Source of the DNA: Patescibacteria group bacterium
GTDB lineage: Bacteria > Patescibacteriota > Patescibacteriia > Patescibacteriales > UBA12465
Direction of reading: 5' to 3'
Assembly (NCBI GenBank): GCA_041656935.1
Contig: JBBACQ010000001.1
Coordinates: forward strand, 93,459 to 157,458
Length of the DNA: 64,000 bases
Positions 6,016 through 48,614 of this stretch are shown one piece after another. Position 1 is the first letter of the stretch; every line of letters starts with the position of its first letter. The notes below the pieces were generated by a model, which searched no databases, was not told the DNA's origin, and saw only the letters and a program-made list of their open reading frames with translations. Position numbers and translations under genes: made by a program.

Positions 6016-6621
6016 TTAAACTCGACGAGGTTTTTTAGGACGACAACCATTATGAGGAACTGCGGTTACGTCTTTAATACTAGAGATAATTAAACCATTA
6101 GCATTCAAAGATCTAATAGCAGATTCTCGACCAGTTCCTACCCCAGCTACAAAAACCTTAACCTCTTCTAAACCGAATTCTTCTTTAGCTTTTAAAACTG
6201 CAATTTTAGCAATAATTTGAGCAGCATACGGAGTAGCTTTTTTAGCTCCCTTAAAGCCAGCCATTCCAGCACTGGCCCAAGAAATAACATTACCGGTTTT
6301 ATCTGTTAAGGAAATAATAGTATTATTATAGGTAGCATTGATATAAGCATGGCCAGATTTTATTTTAACCAGCTCTTTTTTCTTTCTTTTTTTGATTAAT
6401 TTTTTCTTACTTCGAGCCTGTTTATTCTTTTCTAACTTTTGTTTAATTTCTTCTGGTAAATCCTCTATTTCGTTTTTATTTTCTTCTTTAGAAATATCAT
6501 CATCGGAAAACAAATCATCATCAACCGAATCATCTTCCAGCGATTGATCATTTTTATTATCAATATCTTTTATTTCTTCTAAAGATTCATCAATTTTTAT
6601 ATCTTTTTTTTCTTCGGTCAT
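6016..6621 (-). CDS. rpsK: 30S ribosomal protein S11 with an acidic N-terminal extension of about 75 aa
   Basis: Core [41 protein letters not shown]...[11 protein letters not shown]...[15 protein letters not shown] is S11. Confidence 0.95.
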
Positions 6622-21368: not shown

Positions 21369-23396
21369 TTAAAATTTAAAGTAAAAAATCATGACTCTAG
21401 AATTATCCACACTATAGACCAGATCAGCTTCTACTCTAACCTCTTCTACGATTTTAGTAAAGCCCCACCAATAATCATTAACCACAAAATAAACACCTTC
21501 AGCCCCAATCTCAGTCATTAATTCTAACATTAATTCCCTGTTAGGGTTCTCAATCATCTTTAAATAGTAGTCATATAATAATCCCCCGGTCTGAACGGAA
21601 TAATAAAGCCAAGGACCGTAATATCTTTTAAAACCATATTCCTTAATAGCGCTAGCCCCTACTTGCTGATTAGCTAAAACAACATAATTATCATTTTCCT
21701 TAACGCTCTCAATAAAGCGCACGGCTGTAAAGTCAGAAGATGAAACTGAAAAAGCACGAGAATTAAAATGATTATCTTTACGGGGATAATTTAAATATAG
21801 CGAGACCAAAAGTAAACCCGATAAAAATATAGAGATAATAATTTTGAAAAGTATTTTTTCTGATTTTATTTTTTTTATAGAACAAATAAAGATCTCATAA
21901 AAAACTGGGATTAAAAACAAAAAAGATAATATTAAAATTCTGCTGGCATAACTCCCTTTATCTATTTGACTTAAAAATGGAAAATCAATAAACAAACTTA
22001 AAAAATATGACAACATTAAAGCCAAAGAATTAAAGTAGAAAATTTTTAATTCCTTAAGGCGATATTTGAAAACAAAAATTGTAGCTAAAGAAAATAGGAT
22101 TAATAAGAACCAATTTTTATTGAGACCAAAAAAATAAATAAAATTTAAAATGGCATTCTCCTGCCCAACTAACCTAGGAACCCAATTAACCAAATTAATA
22201 TTAGGGAAAGAGAATCGGCCACCAGAAAATATTAAAAGTATTGGCAAAACTATAATTTGGCCTAAATAAGCTAAGTATTTTGAAGCATTTAGCAATTTAT
22301 AATTAAATTTTAAGTTCCACTTCCCTATTTTCAGCAAACTTCCATTATTTTTAATAATACCAATGAACAAAATAAAGGTAAAAATAATTGCCGGAACTCC
22401 AGCTAAGGGATGAATAAAAAATATAGCCAAAGCTAAAGAAAATAGAAAGAAAAAATTAGTTTTTTGGGCAACAAAGTTTTTATTAAAAGAAAATATTAAT
22501 AAAATAATTAAAAACAAAAAGGCTAAGTTTTGTGGAACAGTATAAGTAAAAATTGAAAATGGTAAAATTAGAAATAATAATAAGGGCCAAACAGTTTTGT
22601 GGAATCCTCTTTTTTTAAAATTAAAAATAAAGGTTAATGGGATTAATACGGCTGATAAAAATGGAACCAATAATTTATCTAAAGTCTCCAAAGAAAAAGG
22701 CCAAATCTTTAAAAAGAATAATTCTAAGGTATATTGGCCCAGATAATAAATAGTTTTGGGCTCTACAACACCAAATTTTAAAATGTCAGCCAAAACTCGT
22801 TGATGAAGTAATTGATCATAACCAAAGGCAATTTTATAAATAAAAAATGAAACAGAAAAAAATAAGAAATATAACATAAACACAAACAAATATGACCACC
22901 TGCTTTTAAAATAGAAATTTATAAATATGGTTACTATTAAAAGCCAAAGAAAAAACCAGAAATAATTGGGTAAGAATTGCCAAGGAGAAGCAATAGCCGA
23001 GAAACTGCCGGATTTGAAGAAGATTTGAAACAAAAGAAAGAATAGAGATAGAGTTATCACGGGCAAAATAATTTTTAGAAATACAGAAATTCGCAAGGAT
23101 TCGGACAGCGCTGGGGTTCCCTTCCCCTCCCGCGTATAGTCGCTACGCGACATGCGGTCGGCCGGGAATGATAAGGACGGGGAGGGCGAAGCTTGTTGAT
23201 TACCCCTATAAATGCTAAAATAAATAAAGCTATAAGTTAATAATAACGATAAAAATAGAGTAATAATAACCACTAAATCGTTAAATTTATAAAAATAATA
23301 AAAAATAGAGCCGATATTTATAATCAGCGACAAAAATAAAAGGAAAAATAAAAGAAAATTTTTCTTAAAAAGATTTAAAAAAGTATCTAAACTCAT
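21369..23396 (-). CDS. large polytopic membrane protein with C-terminal soluble domain (possible GT-C-like glycan-assembly protein)
   Basis: More than 12 hydrophobic segments, then a soluble tail of about 130 aa. The track start at 23459 overlaps the divergent GT4 gene; I prefer the ATG at 23396 (MSLDTFLNLF...). Contains an in-frame GC-rich insert. Confidence 0.6.
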   Translation of the reverse strand: MSLDTFLNLFKKNFLLFFLLFLSLIINIGSIFYYFYKFNDLVVIITLFLSLLLTYSFIYFSIYRGNQQASPSPSLSFPADRMSRSDYTREGKGTPALSESLRISVFLKIILPVITLSLFFLLFQIFFKSGSFSAIASPWQFLPNYFWFFLWLLIVTIFINFYFKSRWSYLFVFMLYFLFFSVSFFIYKIAFGYDQLLHQRVLADILKFGVVEPKTIYYLGQYTLELFFLKIWPFSLETLDKLLVPFLSAVLIPLTFIFNFKKRGFHKTVWPLLLFLILPFSIFTYTVPQNLAFLFLIILLIFSFNKNFVAQKTNFFFLFSLALAIFFIHPLAGVPAIIFTFILFIGIIKNNGSLLKIGKWNLKFNYKLLNASKYLAYLGQIIVLPILLIFSGGRFSFPNINLVNWVPRLVGQENAILNFIYFFGLNKNWFLLILFSLATIFVFKYRLKELKIFYFNSLALMLSYFLSLFIDFPFLSQIDKGSYASRILILSFLFLIPVFYEIFICSIKKIKSEKILFKIIISIFLSGLLLVSLYLNYPRKDNHFNSRAFSVSSSDFTAVRFIESVKENDNYVVLANQQVGASAIKEYGFKRYYGPWLYYSVQTGGLLYDYYLKMIENPNRELMLELMTEIGAEGVYFVVNDYWWGFTKIVEEVRVEADLVYSVDNSRVMIFYFKF
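23091..23196 (-). repeat. GC-rich palindromic element inserted in-frame in the membrane-protein gene
   Basis: Imperfect terminal inverted repeats CTTCCCCTCCCG (23121-32) and CGGGGAGGGCGAAG (23178-91); inner hairpin CGCGTA-7 nt-TACGCG. Shares 22-nt and 18-nt blocks with 47258-47279 and 47355-47372. Confidence 0.75.
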
Positions 23397-24548: not shown

Positions 24549-24620
24549 TTGTGTTTATCGTGAACATTCAAAAATTTTGGAAAAAATATTTTTTAGGCCA
24601 CTTTTTTAGAAAAAGTGCCA
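24549..24620 (+). repeat. variant copy of the arm + hairpin repeat unit
   Basis: TTGTGTTTATCGTGAACATTCAAAAATTTTGGAAAAAAT resembles 31083-31121. It is followed by GGCCACTTTTTTAGAAAAAGTGCC, ending 10 nt before the GT4 ATG. Confidence 0.7.
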
Positions 24621-29678: not shown

Positions 29679-30647
29679 CTATTTTTTTAATTTTTGCCAC
29701 CACGAAGGGTTCTCTTTATACCAATTAATTGTTTTTTCTAAACCAACAATAAAGTCTATTTGAGGAGCCCAACCTAATTCTCGCTTAATTTTAGAAAAAT
29801 CAATGGCATAACGCCAATCATGACCTGGTCTATCAGCGACATATTCAATCATTTCGTCTTTCTCATCCATTAATTTTAAAATATTTAATGTAATATCAAT
29901 ATTTTTAATTTCATTATCGCCACCCAAACAATAAGTTTCGCCAATCTTTCCTTTTTTAATAATCATTTCTACCCCACGATTATGATCATCAACGTGAATC
30001 CAATCACGAATATTTTCTCCTTGACCATAAACGGGAATCTTTTTCCCTTCGATAAGATTAGTAATAAAAAGTGGAATTAATTTTTCTGGATACTGATAAG
30101 GACCATAATTATTAGAACAATTGGAAATGGTAATTGGTAGTTTATGAGTATGAAAATAAGCTCGAACTAAGTGATCGGAACTAGCCTTGGAAGCACTATA
30201 AGGTGAACGAGGGTCATAAGGTGTTTTTTCATTAAATTTAGGATCATTTAATTCTAGAGAACCAAAAACTTCATCAGTCGAAACATGATGAAAACGAATA
30301 TTGCCATTATTTTTAGCACAATCTAATAAAATACGAGTTCCCTCGACATTGGTTTTTATAAAATCAGCACTATTCTCTATAGATCTATCAACATGACTCT
30401 CGGCCGCGAAATGAACAATCAGATCAACCTCTTTGACAATACCATTAACTAAATTATAATCGCAAATATCTCCCTGAATAAATTTGTAATTCTCTCCTTC
30501 TTGAATATCTTTTAAATTTTCTAAGTTTCCAGCGTAAGTTAATTTATCTAGGTTAATAATATTATCTTTAGGGTTAGATTTAAGCCAGTATCTAATGAAA
30601 TTAGAGCCAATAAAACCAGCTCCGCCGGTTACCAAAATTCTAGCCAT
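29679..30647 (-). CDS. rfbB: dTDP-glucose 4,6-dehydratase
   Basis: ILVTGGAGFIGSNF, HFAAESHVDRS, STDEVFG, YSASKASSDH. Confidence 0.9.
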   Translation of the reverse strand: MARILVTGGAGFIGSNFIRYWLKSNPKDNIINLDKLTYAGNLENLKDIQEGENYKFIQGDICDYNLVNGIVKEVDLIVHFAAESHVDRSIENSADFIKTNVEGTRILLDCAKNNGNIRFHHVSTDEVFGSLELNDPKFNEKTPYDPRSPYSASKASSDHLVRAYFHTHKLPITISNCSNNYGPYQYPEKLIPLFITNLIEGKKIPVYGQGENIRDWIHVDDHNRGVEMIIKKGKIGETYCLGGDNEIKNIDITLNILKLMDEKDEMIEYVADRPGHDWRYAIDFSKIKRELGWAPQIDFIVGLEKTINWYKENPSWWQKLKK

Positions 30648-30806
30648 AATGGTTTGTTTTAATAATAATTAGTTATTTTATTATACTATAATAAAGTTTT
30701 GGAGTAAAGAATAACCTTTTTGTGCTATTTTTTTAGGAAAAATACCCACTTGACCATCTCTGGCGAAAAAAATTAGCAAACTAAAGTTTTTTTTAAAAAT
30801 AATAAT

Positions 30807-30959
30807 TTTTTCATGCCACTTTTTTAGAAAAAGTGGCCCAAAAATCGCCAGCAATTCAAAATTTCAGGACATTCGCTATAAAGTTTTTCATGCCACTTTT
30901 TTAGAAAAAGTGGCCCAAAAATCGCCAGCAATTCAAAATTTCAGGACATTCGCTATAAA
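30807..30959 (+). repeat. tandem duplication, 2 x 77 nt (arm + GCCAC hairpin)
   Basis: 71 nt starting at CATGCCAC (30812 and 30889) are identical by my alignment. Each unit has the hairpin GCCACTTTTT-TAG-AAAAAGTGGC (30815-30837 and 30892-30914). Confidence 0.9.
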
Positions 30960-31062
30960 AGCTAGTAAAATTTAGAACTCGGATGAGCTTCGCTCATCCT
31001 CAAACAGCTAAATTTTACACGCTTTTTACGCTTATGTCTAATCTGAAATTTTTCAAAGCTGG
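30925..31062. repeat. extended imperfect palindrome A (about 138 nt), candidate MITE or structured RNA
   Basis: Outer arms CCAGCAATTCAAAATTTCAGGACATTCGC / ACGCTTATGTCTAATCTGAAATTTTTCAAAGCTGG; inner stem 30965-30975/31008-31018 (11 bp, all Watson-Crick); apical hairpin GGATGAG-CTTCG-CTCATCC. Confidence 0.7.
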
Positions 31063-31090
31063 CAAGTAAAAAAAATTAATTTCTTGTTTT

Positions 31091-31225
31091 CTTGCGAACA
31101 TTAAAAAATTTTGGGGAAATTGCGAGTGTAGAAACCTTGCAAAATTTGGTTGTTTGAGGCGTAGCCGAGTTCTAAATTTTGCTAGGTTTCATAACGAGCA
31201 ATCCAAAATTTTTTAGTTCGCTAAG
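31091..31225. repeat. extended imperfect palindrome B (about 135 nt), inverted homologue of A
   Basis: Outer arms 31091-31114/31203-31225; inner stem 31131-31147/31174-31190 (17 bp, 1 mismatch). The reverse complement aligns to A through AAAATTTAGAACTCGG...CCTCAAACA.C.AAATTTT. Confidence 0.7.
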
Positions 31226-31344
31226 TTTTTTTGGACACTTTTTTTGTTAAAAAAAGTGTCTTAATAAATAAGTAAGTATACAAAAAACTTTAGTTCGCTA
31301 TTTTTTGGATGCTTTTTTTATTAAAAAAGTGTCTTAATAAATAA
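31214..31344 (+). repeat. diverged tandem repeat, again with 77-nt period, each unit carrying a hairpin variant
   Basis: TAGTTCGCTA at 31214 and 31291. Hairpins GACACTTTTTTT..AAAAAAAGTGTC (31234-31260) and GATGCTTTTTTT..AAAAAAGTGTC (31308-31333); both are followed by TTAATAAATAA. Confidence 0.75.
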
Positions 31345-31383
31345 TTCAAGTTTTAAATATTCGTAAGAAAAATATTTAAATCA

Positions 31384-31836
31384 CTATGAAATAGTATAAG
31401 GAGAATCTTTATCATCTTCCCAACGGATTTCATCAATTTCTTCTTTCTTGCCCTCTCCCTTATACAACTTATCTGGAAAATTTAGACAATATGAGTCACC
31501 GGGGCCCAAGGCCTTATAACCATGAACCACTCCCGGTGGAACAACAATTAAAGTCGGCTCCCCTTCTCCAGCTTCAATACTTAGATGTTCCCCCTTAGTT
31601 TCACTGTCTTCTCGTCGGTCCCAAAGATGAAGACTAAACTTTCCCGGACCAACAAAAACAAAACAATCACTCTGATTTTTGTGCTCATGCGGACCACGAA
31701 TAACTCCCGGCTTAGTAACACTGATATAGGCCATTTCTGGCCGATAATCAAATTCATCGGACCGATAAACCTCACTCAACCAACCACGATCATCGTGATA
31801 TTGGTCTAATTTTTTAATAATTACTCCATTTATCAT
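31384..31836 (-). CDS. rfbC: dTDP-4-dehydrorhamnose 3,5-epimerase (short cupin form)
   Basis: HDDRGWLSEVYR...IRGPHEHK...LIVVPPGVVHGYKA: cupin epimerase pattern; rml context. Confidence 0.8.
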   Translation of the reverse strand: MINGVIIKKLDQYHDDRGWLSEVYRSDEFDYRPEMAYISVTKPGVIRGPHEHKNQSDCFVFVGPGKFSLHLWDRREDSETKGEHLSIEAGEGEPTLIVVPPGVVHGYKALGPGDSYCLNFPDKLYKGEGKKEEIDEIRWEDDKDSPYTIS

Positions 31837-46146: not shown

Positions 46147-46338
46147 AAATATTTAAAAAATTAAATTTAATTTAGATAAAAACCCTGATATTCGGGATAA
46201 TCCTAATAATCGTACCTAGTTTAGAGAAATTAATTATTCTTATTTAATGACCTATCCTTTTTCTGTTGTTTTTAATAATAAAACACCAAAAAACTCAAAT
46301 AATTTGGTCAGTTAGATACTATTATCATATCTAAAAAA

Positions 46339-46363
46339 AATGCTTTTGTAAATACTAAGCATT
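46339..46363 (-). terminator. rho-independent terminator after ruvA
   Basis: AATGCTT-11 nt-AAGCATT; on the minus strand it is followed by T8. Confidence 0.6.
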
Positions 46364-46419
46364 TTTTCTCCGATTAAACTTAGAATAATAATACTATATA
46401 AAATTAGGTAAAGAAATAT

Positions 46420-46992
46420 TTATTTCGACATCCTTTTAAGAGCCTCTTTTATCTTTTCGCCACTATCAACAATGTTTTTATCTACCTTATTCAAGGCCTC
46501 GCGGGCCTCCGGCAAAGAATAACCTAGGGCCATCAAAGCATCAATTTCATCAGCCGAGCTTCCACTACTAGATAAATCATAATCGCCACCTAGTTTAAAT
46601 AATTTATCCTTTAGTTCTAAAACGACTCTTTCGGCTATTTTTTTGCCAATCCCAGAAACTTTAGTAAGTAAATGGGAATCCCCTCGAACAATCGACTCTT
46701 TAATATCAGATAATTTGGCAATTCCTAAAACTGACAAGGCCGATTTTGGACCAATCCCAGAAATAGAAATGAGTAACTCAAAAAAACTTAATTCTTCTAA
46801 AGTTTTAAAACCATATAAATCTAAGGCTTCTTCTCGAACATACTGATGAGTAAAAATTTCTAATTCTTGGCCAACTTTTAATTCATTTAGAAAATTTTCG
46901 CCAACAAAAACACTATAGCCGATATTATTAACCTCGATTAAAACGGAATTTTTTAATTTAAAGGAAATTTTTCCTTTTAGATATGAAATCAT
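46420..46992 (-). CDS. ruvA: Holliday junction branch-migration complex subunit RuvA
   Basis: MISYLKGKI...GYSVFV...FELLISISGIGPKSALSVL...VSGIGKKIAERVVLELKDK. Confidence 0.9.
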   Translation of the reverse strand: MISYLKGKISFKLKNSVLIEVNNIGYSVFVGENFLNELKVGQELEIFTHQYVREEALDLYGFKTLEELSFFELLISISGIGPKSALSVLGIAKLSDIKESIVRGDSHLLTKVSGIGKKIAERVVLELKDKLFKLGGDYDLSSSGSSADEIDALMALGYSLPEAREALNKVDKNIVDSGEKIKEALKRMSK

Positions 46993-47009
46993 ATTTTTTT
47001 ATTTATGGT

Positions 47010-47083
47010 ACCTCCGGCGAGACATTGCAAAACAATGACGCCCTCTGCGCACCTCCGGCGAGATATTGCAAAGCAATGACGCC
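47010..47083. repeat. GC-rich tandem direct repeat, 41-nt period, 2 units
   Basis: ACCTCCGGCGAGACATTGCAAAACAATGACGCC (47010-42) versus ACCTCCGGCGAGATATTGCAAAGCAATGACGCC (47051-83); 2 mismatches. Confidence 0.85.
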
Positions 47084-47094
47084 CCCCCTACGTC

Positions 47095-47262
47095 ATTCCC
47101 GCGAAAGCGGGAATCCAGGGTTAATCCGAAAAACGAAAAAATACTATTTAAAAATAATTAACTCAATATAAATATTATTATTAAAATTACTATCCAGTTG
47201 GTAAATCAAATCTACAAAAATTTATCAAACATTTTAATAATAGGGATTAACCCTGGATTCCC
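47095..47262. repeat. GAAA-loop hairpin plus perfect 19-bp inverted repeat bracketing an AT-rich spacer
   Basis: ATTCCCGC-GAAA-GCGGGAAT (47095-47114); GGGAATCCAGGGTTAATCC (47109-27) versus GGATTAACCCTGGATTCCC (47244-62). Confidence 0.85.
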
Positions 47263-47372
47263 TTCCCCTCCCGCGTATAAAAATTAACAAACTATTATTG
47301 TGATCTTCTTTGTTTTAATTAATTAAACAAGATCTTATGTAATCAAAATTTTACGCGGTCGGCCGGGAATGA
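47258..47372 (-). repeat. split copy of the 23.1-kb GC-rich element
   Basis: TTCCCTTCCCCTCCCGCGTATA (47258-79) and GCGGTCGGCCGGGAATGA (47355-72) are identical to 23117-38 and 23154-71. Here they are separated by about 75 nt of AT-rich sequence containing its own hairpin. Confidence 0.8.
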
Positions 47373-48614
47373 AGCGGGAATAGTAAATCTTCTTAAAACG
47401 GCTAACTCTGGAATTATTTTGGTAGCTAAAATTTCTAAAATAATCTCCTGGCCACCACCTCCACCATGGGCTTCATTTATCTTTTGTTTAGTTTTAAGAT
47501 CTAACATCTCTTTTAAACCTAATTTTATTATATCATAATTTGGCAAAATTATCTCTACCCGATCTCCAGCTTTAATAGTATTATGAACCTTAATTATTAA
47601 TCTATTTCGATATTTATTACCCTCTTTTTTAGACTGATTTCGAATAACCTGACCACAAAACTCCCAATTTGGAATAAAATGAGAGTTTTCGATATTCTGT
47701 TCCCCCTTTTTACCTAACAAAAAACCAGTAGTGTAACCACGATGAGTTATCTTATTAAATAACTCTTTATACAAAAAATTTATTTTTTTAGGGTTTTCTA
47801 AGGCCTGTTTATAGATACCAACAACATTGGCTAAATAATAAACACTTTTAGCTCGCCCCTCAATTTTAAAACTAGTTATCCCCGCTTTTATCAATTCGGG
47901 TATATTTTTTATTAAACATAAATCTTTTGAATTTAATAAATAAGAACCGTGCTCCTCCTTAACCAGCTCCAATTCTTCGTTCTTGCCCTTGGCTTTGATA
48001 AAAACATCATACTCCCAACGACAAGGTTGGACACAATCGCCTAAATTAGCGCTTCGTTGAATAAAATCTTTAGACAAAAAACAACGCCCCGAATAACTCA
48101 TACACATAGCTCCATGAACAAAATATTCCAATTCCATTTTGGGACATTTTCTATGTATTTCCCCTATCTCTTTCAAGGTCGTTTCCCGCCCTAAAATTAT
48201 CCTTGTAATTCCCTGACTTTGCCAAAACTTAACAGCTTCGTAATTAGTGCAATTAGCCTGAGTTGATAAATGTAAATTAATTTTAGGACAATATTTTCGA
48301 ATTAAATTCAAAATACCCGGATCAGAAAAAATTAAACCATCGGGCTGAAGTTTATTTATTAATTTTAAATATTCAGGTATATTTTCGATATGCTTATTAT
48401 GAGCAAAAATATTTACCGTCACATAAACCTTTTTCTTATTTTCGTGCGCATAATCTATGGCTTCTTTTAAAGATTTAAGAGAAAAATTATTTATTCTAAC
48501 CCTTAAAGAAAAATCAGGAATACCTAAATAAACCGCATCGGCCCCATGAGCTAAAGCGGTTTTCATTTTAATTAAATCTCCAGCTGGAGCTATTAATTCT
48601 ATTTTTTTATTCAT
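47343..48614 (-). CDS. peptidase U32 family protein
   Basis: IELIAPAGDL...GADAVYLG...; E-x-F-x-HGAMC-x-SYSGRC pattern (EYFVHGAMCMSYSGRCF). The last 13 or so codons lie in the GC-rich repeat. Confidence 0.85.
   Translation of the reverse strand: MNKKIELIAPAGDLIKMKTALAHGADAVYLGIPDFSLRVRINNFSLKSLKEAIDYAHENKKKVYVTVNIFAHNKHIENIPEYLKLINKLQPDGLIFSDPGILNLIRKYCPKINLHLSTQANCTNYEAVKFWQSQGITRIILGRETTLKEIGEIHRKCPKMELEYFVHGAMCMSYSGRCFLSKDFIQRSANLGDCVQPCRWEYDVFIKAKGKNEELELVKEEHGSYLLNSKDLCLIKNIPELIKAGITSFKIEGRAKSVYYLANVVGIYKQALENPKKINFLYKELFNKITHRGYTTGFLLGKKGEQNIENSHFIPNWEFCGQVIRNQSKKEGNKYRNRLIIKVHNTIKAGDRVEIILPNYDIIKLGLKEMLDLKTKQKINEAHGGGGGQEIILEILATKIIPELAVLRRFTIPASFPADRVKF

Follow-up and report, generated by a model that had tools for sequence, protein, structure and literature searches.

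A probable mosaic of dRS3/NTS-type hairpin repeats at the junction of the U32 peptidase and ruvA genes of a Patescibacterium

The Neisseria Transformation Sequence (NTS) is an oriented 28-nt repeat, CGTCATTCCCGCGMAVGCGGGAATCYRG, that contains the 20-bp dRS3 palindrome ATTCCC-N8-GGGAAT (PMC11893778). It is bound and cut, solely as single-stranded DNA (ssDNA), by SsnA, a GIY-YIG protein of 94 amino acids; the three bases 5' of the palindrome govern cleavage, a cytosine 3' of the palindrome governs binding, and a C-rich region before the NTS is the reported cutting region (PMC11893778). The occurrence of the motif across phyla was already documented in 2025 in the work on the Ssn nucleases (PMC11893778). 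In the Neisseria intergenic mosaic elements (NIMEs), 20-bp dRS3 palindromes flank RS blocks of 50-150 bp, producing a GC "wave" that peaks at the dRS3, and in 2007 these elements were said not to occur outside Neisseria (PMC1797815). In this study, the spacer between the genes for a U32 peptidase and RuvA was analysed in a 64-kb stretch of DNA from a Patescibacteria group bacterium; "the window" denotes this whole stretch of 64,000 nucleotides. The spacer is probably a non-coding mosaic, specific to this lineage, of hairpin repeats of the dRS3/NTS type, which resembles NIME and BIME arrays and lies in a tolerant gene junction.

NTS-type hairpins of the U32-ruvA spacer

The central hairpin of the spacer can be assigned by its sequence to the NTS/dRS3 repeat. 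The copy agrees with the published consensus at 28 of 28 positions, retains the GTC 5' and the C 3' of the palindrome that matter for SsnA cleavage and binding, respectively, and fits the degenerate pattern of the Ssn-related motif (SRM), HGTCWYN(0-2)YYVSBRHN(0-5)WNVSBRGN(0-2)RNCYNB. With a covariance model based on this copy together with three from N. gonorrhoeae and two variants from relatives, it scored 47.4 bits (E 7e-12) and was the only significant match in the window. As ssDNA it is predicted to form a hairpin with an 8-bp stem (-9.6 kcal/mol, z -3.4). The dRS3 core, ATTCCCGC-GAAA-GCGGGAAT, had been described as a GAAA-loop hairpin in an earlier reading of the sequence alone (the sequence-only reading), and it was indeed found, as the sole such match in 64 kb. 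When the spacer was compared by blastn with 72,556 plasmid records, only positions 47091-47134 gave matches, in Neisseria gonorrhoeae (16-18 places per record), Azospirillum, Sphingomonas, Sphingopyxis, Photobacterium and Aeromonas. The NTS of the window follows a C-rich run (47083-47090, CCCCCCCTA), as do the copies of N. gonorrhoeae (GACCCCGAC) and Azospirillum (CTCCCCCGG), at the equivalent positions in the loci L125 and L126.

A second component, E23, occurs in the spacer and again at 23.1 kb, a distance of 24 kb. Two exact blocks are common to both copies (47258-47279 with 23117-23138, 22/22; 47355-47372 with 23154-23171, 18/18), as the sequence-only reading had noticed; a gap of 75 nt separates the blocks in the spacer and one of 15 nt in the 23.1-kb copy. 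Each copy, read on the minus strand, starts with TCATTCCC, which corresponds to the 5' end of the NTS minus its first bases, and E23 has the same ends as the NTS, TCATTCCC ... GGGAATCCAG, with a larger interior between them. Where the NTS has the interior GCGAAAGC, E23 has GGCCGACCGC...GCGGGAGGGGAA, which encloses the 15-nt or the 75-nt block. The copy in the spacer terminates in GGGAATCCAGGGTTAATCC, that is, the 3' end of the NTS followed by a 9-nt extension that also trails the canonical NTS, and it is predicted to fold as a three-tier interrupted hairpin. A second dRS3 is split by 102 nt (ATTCCC at 47257, GGGAAT at 47365), and the only complete dRS3 is that at 47095-47114.

The perfect 19-bp inverted repeat reported earlier, with 116 nt in between, was recovered as well, and it consists of the identical 3' tails of the NTS (+) and E23 (-) facing each other across the 116-nt block. 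A similar 3' extension, CCAGGGCTCATC, is carried by an Azospirillum copy of the NTS, and the 9-nt extension is therefore not peculiar to this locus. The same arrangement could be taken for a miniature inverted-repeat transposable element (MITE) mobilised by a transposase, in which a 154-nt unit of 19-bp terminal inverted repeats and a 116-nt core would lie beside pre-existing repeats. The perfection of the inverted repeats, the sharp boundaries of the AT-rich core and a size typical of MITEs speak for this explanation. However, there is no target-site duplication (the flanks read ..CGAAAGC and TTCCCCT..), no second copy of the arm or the core was found in the window, the relatives or a viral collection, and no transposase is present among the genes examined, which comprised the small open reading frames (ORFs) and the neighbouring genes of both loci. 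The arms extend into larger hairpins, one into the NTS and the other into E23, which accounts for the inverted repeat without a MITE; such an element is very unlikely here.

Next to the NTS on its ruvA side lie the two tandem blocks of the sequence-only reading, which were confirmed with a unit length of 34 nt. On the minus strand each unit is made up of a CGTCATT leader and a 5-bp hairpin, predicted to be weak (-5.5 and -5.9 kcal/mol); of the four CGTCATT heptamers in the window, three fall within the spacer. Neither E23 nor the 34-nt units fit the SRM pattern or are recognised by the covariance model, and both are therefore treated as NTS-like rather than as demonstrated members of the family. 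The 116-nt core folds no better than shuffled sequence (z -0.25). The 75-nt AT-rich block is present as described, but the hairpin ascribed to it is a mere imperfect 17-nt palindrome (82%), and the block as a whole folds no better than shuffles (z -0.28). No significant similarity of either block was found in the window, the relatives' spacers or the other fetched loci, and local alignments of the blocks to the relatives' spacers scored no better than shuffles. The proposal that one element family had repeatedly inserted into itself was not substantiated, as the two interior blocks are unique sequence and not family members. The 34-nt unit has only its leader in common with the NTS, and the NTS model misses both this unit and E23.

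The hexamer GGGAAT/ATTCCC, which defines the dRS3/NTS repeat family, does recur as the core motif, with five occurrences in the 392-nt spacer versus 0.19 expected from the remaining window (Poisson P ~2e-6). All repeat components of the spacer were found where the sequence-only reading had placed them, far above chance expectation. Their coordinates are collected in Table 1.

Table 1. Coordinates of the repeats, the flanking genes and the second E23 copy within the window
Feature	Position	Strand	Description
Canonical NTS	47091..47118	+	CGTCATTCCCGCGAAAGCGGGAATCCAG; dRS3 palindrome core 47095-47114
E23 (NTS-like variant)	47244..47373	-	TCATTCCC-GGCCGACCGCGTA-[75-nt AT-rich block 47280-47354]-TACGCGGGAGGGGAA-GGGAATCCAGGGTTAATCC
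Second E23 copy	23088..23199	-	GC-rich island in frame in the gene of a 675-aa membrane protein (21369-23396)
Extra half-stem adjoining E23	47374..47381	+	GCGGGAAT (ATTCCCGC on the minus strand)
Inverted-repeat left arm	47109..47127	+	NTS 3' half (GGGAATCCAG) plus extension GGTTAATCC
Inverted-repeat right arm	47244..47262	part of E23 (-)	E23 3' tail
AT-rich core (116 nt) between tail-to-tail hairpins	47128..47243	.	GC 12-25%; comparable to an RS block of NIMEs
Two tandem 34-nt units	47010-47043, 47051-47084	-	41-nt period, 2 mismatches; each GGGCGTCATTG-YTTTG-CAATRTCTCGCCGGAGGT
Recoded U32 C-terminal tail	47343..47384	-	FTIPASFPADRVKF and stop; last 14 codons, read from inserted E23
U32 peptidase gene	47343..48614	-	upstream of the insertion; Pfam Peptidase_U32, E 9e-85
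ruvA	46420..46992	-	downstream of the insertion; Pfam RuvA_N, HHH_5, RuvA_C

Insertion at the gene junction

The host is an AT-rich, Falkowbacteria-like Patescibacterium. The minus-strand genes around the locus encode pyruvate kinase, the U32 peptidase, RuvA, MreB and MreC (genes ruvA, mreB and mreC); the GC content of the whole window is 31%, and within the spacer, repeats of 55-60% GC alternate with the two AT-rich blocks at 12-25%. Relatives were taken from a scan of one genome per species, which yielded 80 loci with U32 relatives. The closest of these, at 70-82% identity, are Patescibacteria, one of them named Candidatus Falkowbacteria. The order U32-then-ruvA is kept in 24 relatives, 16 of which have 4-23 nt from the end of the U32 match to the ruvA start. 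A typical junction in a relative reads ...GTTTTAAGAAGAAAATTATAAAAATATG, with the U32 protein ending ...VLRRKL and stop; in the window, ~370 nt separate ...AGAAGATT from ACCATAAATAAAAAAATATG. The search for an empty site that the sequence-only reading had proposed thus identified the spacer as inserted and not ancestral DNA; it is a lineage-specific insertion at a junction whose ancestral state is tight.

The insertion extends into the peptidase gene. The U32 proteins of the relatives end in ...VLRRKL or KI, or in ...VLRRLVV, and their tblastn matches to the window protein stop at residues 409-412 of 423; the window protein terminates in ...VLRRFTIPASFPADRVKF, read from E23. As the last 14 codons are read from the repeat, the true insertion spans ~47008-47378, and for annotation purposes the U32 tail is repeat-derived. 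Other reading frames are likewise found in the repeats: an ORF of 62 amino acids at 46983-47171 (+) is read wholly from them (..RHSRESGNPG..), and further frames give LDSRFRGND, WIPAFAGMT and VIPAKAGIQ. ORFs such as 46983-47171 are repeat-derived and are not to be annotated as genes.

A chimeric join of repeat-bearing reads would be another source of such a spacer. The genome is a metagenome-assembled genome, repeats break short-read assemblies, and a contig of the Logan collection ends on the last base of the NTS, all of which speak for an assembly artefact. Yet this Logan contig, independently assembled, reproduces exactly ruvA and 126 nt of the spacer, with every base of both 34-nt units and of the NTS identical, and it supports the assembly of the spacer. 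Exact-protein look-ups otherwise returned short Logan or ENA contigs only, all situated inside the window. Moreover, the U32 reading frame continues smoothly into the element, and E23 also lies within an intact ORF at 23.1 kb. An artefact is therefore scarcely credible.

The spacer was also considered as a functional structured RNA or cis-regulatory leader, that is, a terminator, a stabiliser or an element of the ruvA 5' untranslated region transcribed together with U32 and ruvA. The folding of either strand is far stronger than that of shuffled sequences (z -5.3 and -5.8), the position within a co-directional gene pair means that the spacer is probably transcribed, and weak promoter-like sites are present in the AT-rich core. 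However, the inverted repeats present at the DNA level account for this folding, and the counts of promoters and terminators equal the shuffle expectation. Since the spacer is absent from all relatives, in most of which the junction measures 4-23 nt, there is neither conservation nor covariation. A search of the whole window at the Rfam gathering thresholds returned two tRNAs only and nothing in the spacer. In a permissive Rfam search of the spacer, the Francisella RNA FtrB was obtained at 20 bits versus a threshold of 66 bits and was rejected; the weak match is due to the same GTCATTCCCGCG..GCGGGAATC hairpin being contained in the FtrB model. The structured non-coding locus that had been offered as one possible meaning of the layout was thus not borne out in the form of an RNA gene, and a role as an RNA leader is highly improbable.

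The other possibility offered, an insertion hotspot, fared better. In a neighbour-joining tree of U32 and RuvA, the window has the loci L002, L003 and L129 as its sister group, and their junction holds an AT-rich element with a terminator-like hairpin end that is 85-90% identical to positions 31087-31275 of the window. The last ~20 nt ahead of the window ruvA start resemble the end of this element, which the repeat mosaic has probably replaced at the window junction. At the same junction in L012 (11210-11331), two variant NTS hairpins are arranged tail-to-tail and 12 nt apart, with TGTCATTTCCGCGAAAGAGAGAGTCCAG followed by the 12 nt and by a reverse copy interrupted by 20 nt. Because the close sister L017 has an empty junction, this NTS-like pair represents an independent acquisition. 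Further unrelated inserts, two of them palindromes, are found at the junction in L019, L022 and L028, and a reverse transcriptase cassette lies upstream of ruvA in L131-L133. In L134, the closest relative by RuvA (91%), the mere 94 nt that the contig holds upstream are different again and lack the 34-nt unit. The junction has thus been hit repeatedly; it tolerates small structured inserts and is possibly even a preferred site for them.

The individual inserts differ in character. That of L022 (11219-11385) is a GC-rich palindrome, and that of L028 (8022-8147) a near-perfect AT-rich palindrome of ~100 nt. The reverse transcriptase (RVT_1) cassette lies directly upstream of ruvA in L131 (1-1815) and in L132 and L133 (1-300 in each), and in these relatives, with RuvA 86-88% identical, an AAC-rich segment resembling a template repeat precedes RVT_1. 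In L129, a bAvd gene is located nearby (6386-6579). The RVT_1 cassettes next to ruvA look like diversity-generating retroelements. Within the window, the long intergenic region 30647-31384 contains a perfect 77-nt tandem duplication (30807-30959) and a 74-nt repeat present twice (31227-31377), and terminator-like hairpins of the form CACTTTTTT..AAAAAGTG occur at 24599 (24599-24617), 30817, 30894 and 31236. Given the identity of positions 31087-31275 to the insert of L129, L002 and L003, a second, AT-rich repeat family exists across these genomes. The spacer between ruvA and mreB (46147-46419) is 274 nt with a GC content of 8-30%, which is long for this genome.

E23 has entered coding sequence twice. 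At 23.1 kb it sits in the open frame of a multi-pass membrane protein of 675 amino acids with more than 1,000 homologues, and an alignment with 11 of them placed the encoded segment in a variable loop that follows the second predicted transmembrane helix. The element lengthens this loop, which exceeds that of the closest homologue, P0001 (67% identity), by ~20-30 residues. Both E23 copies are translated in the same frame (..SFPADR..), and in both the membrane-protein loop and the last 14 codons of U32 the insertion is in frame without disrupting the gene, as in the palindromic elements of Rickettsia. In L018 (1327-1354), an SRM/NTS-like hairpin (TGTCATTCTCGCAAAAGCCAGAATCTGG) lies in a GC-rich stretch within the variable linker of a 321-aa ORF; because every homologue differs in this linker, a clean insertion is not demonstrable there.

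Origin and proposed mechanism

Read from U32 to ruvA, the repeat mosaic begins with E23 as an enlarged NTS-like hairpin whose loop holds the 75-nt AT-rich block, and continues with the 116-nt AT-rich block and the canonical NTS in opposite orientation, followed by the two tandem mini-hairpins that start with CGTCATT. Several observations weigh against this interpretation. The AT-rich blocks have no detectable relatives, and E23 and the 34-nt unit would be placed in the family by their shared ends. No further canonical NTS was found in the 64-kb window, and only two NTS-like variants in 442 kb of relatives; with copies this sparse, a multi-copy family in this clade is not demonstrated. The end of the Logan contig at the NTS is weak evidence of repeat-induced breakage and may be a coverage effect; it is no proof of multi-copy status, because a second contig from the same sample breaks inside U32, in unique sequence. 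No GIY-YIG gene was detected in the window or in the 10-kb flanks of the relatives by Pfam searches of small ORFs, a motif scan and jackhmmer, the last with a seed of the YhbQ type and hence of limited sensitivity for Ssn (cd10448, single-domain GIY-YIG). Exact-pattern scans gave no matches to the 34-nt unit in viral and metagenome collections, and none to the 19-nt arm or the E23 18-mer in the viral collection. The 18-mer matched 40 times in metagenomes, and these matches were dismissed as chance, being located in GC-rich contigs without the second block. A protein search with the repeat-encoded peptides in two frames brought no candidates, a route unsuited to such short spurious ORFs.

The sparsity of NTS-like copies in the clade also fits a different origin, in which NTS-bearing fragments of a GC-richer bacterium were taken up by competence and patched in by illegitimate recombination, without being mobile in this genome. 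The identity of the window NTS to the consensus found in Proteobacteria, the GC content of the repeats (55-60% versus 31% for the genome) and the natural competence reported for Patescibacteria (PMC12455944) are in line with such a capture of foreign DNA. On the other hand, E23 occurs twice in unrelated contexts of the window with its 22/22 and 18/18 blocks, an argument in favour of a duplication inside this genome. No match to the 34-nt unit or to E23 was found in the plasmid, viral and metagenome collections searched, and L012 gained its NTS-like hairpins independently at the same junction. Foreign DNA is thus an unlikely source, and it is, like the MITE, the RNA leader and the assembly chimera, less likely than the repeat mosaic.

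For the mosaic, the following course of events can be proposed. The elements would be selfish or neutral palindromic repeats whose ssDNA hairpins are recognised by an Ssn-type GIY-YIG nuclease, or by a different hairpin-specific enzyme, with its gene in another part of the genome or on donor DNA. As ssDNA is nicked and recombined in the course of replication or natural transformation, the elements could spread or be rearranged, and they would survive where insertion is harmless, as at the junction of unrelated genes or in a variable protein loop. Any effect on the host would probably be incidental; ruvA would be uncoupled from U32, and strong hairpins would now lie in the transcript. Recognition and recombination of ssDNA hairpins by an Ssn-type nuclease are inferred by analogy with Neisseria. 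In a bolder and rather doubtful version, Patescibacteria, which are reportedly naturally competent (PMC12455944), might carry an active NTS/Ssn-type system that cuts hairpins in incoming or replicating ssDNA, the elements being mobile into genes in frame, where they would remodel proteins, and E23 and the 34-nt unit serving as new substrates, specific to the lineage, of a divergent Ssn-like enzyme.

Comparison with known repeat systems

The closest counterpart of the spacer is the NTS/dRS3/SRM system (PMC11893778), with which it shares the identical 28 nt with the oriented CGTC leader, the 8-bp stem, the C past the palindrome and a predicted ssDNA hairpin. The differences lie in the host, an AT-rich Patescibacterium versus Pseudomonadati, and in the number of copies, with one canonical NTS per 64 kb versus hundreds per Neisseria genome. 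In addition, no ssn gene was seen in the window or the relatives' flanks, and the enlarged (E23) and mini (34-nt unit) variants are outside the SRM definition. Compared with the NIMEs, the spacer shows a similar alternation of ATTCCC/GGGAAT palindromes with AT-richer blocks, here of 75 and 116 nt, a similar wave-like GC content and an intergenic position. It differs from them in being a single small array that runs into coding sequence, with one dRS3 split by 102 nt and with AT-rich blocks that are not members of a repeat family, as the RS blocks of NIMEs are.

REP/BIME clusters of enterobacteria have RAYT (IS200/IS605-like) enzymes. In these clusters, as in the spacer, short hairpin repeats are grouped at a gene end in alternating orientation, whereas the sequences are unrelated and no RAYT gene was seen here; REP/BIME and RAYT are also discussed in connection with the Ssn nucleases (PMC11893778). 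The Rickettsia palindromic elements (RPEs) have a length of ~150 bp (reviewed in PMC10969869). They resemble the present elements in being palindromic and in occurring both between genes and in frame within genes, where a peptide is added to a tolerant loop or terminus, but no sequence relation is known and the in-frame cases found here number only two. The GC clusters of yeast mitochondrial DNA are GC-rich palindromes scattered through a compact and very AT-rich genome, where they lie in spacers and sometimes within genes; they differ in being organelle-borne, in sequence and in the proposed mechanism.

A 28-base non-coding motif of Neisseria and other Proteobacteria is thus found unchanged in an ultra-small, AT-rich bacterium of the candidate phyla radiation, which suggests a wider reach of the Ssn/NTS system. 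As Patescibacteria rely on natural DNA uptake, they offer a natural testing place for a possible control of transformation by Ssn. The case also shows how repeats are tolerated in a streamlined genome, at a junction of unrelated genes and, in frame, within a variable loop of one protein and at the C-terminus of another. With respect to the systems described before, neither the central motif nor the kind of structure is new; what is new is the AT-rich Patescibacterium as host, the NTS-like variants of enlarged and miniature size, and the occurrence of the element in frame in two genes.

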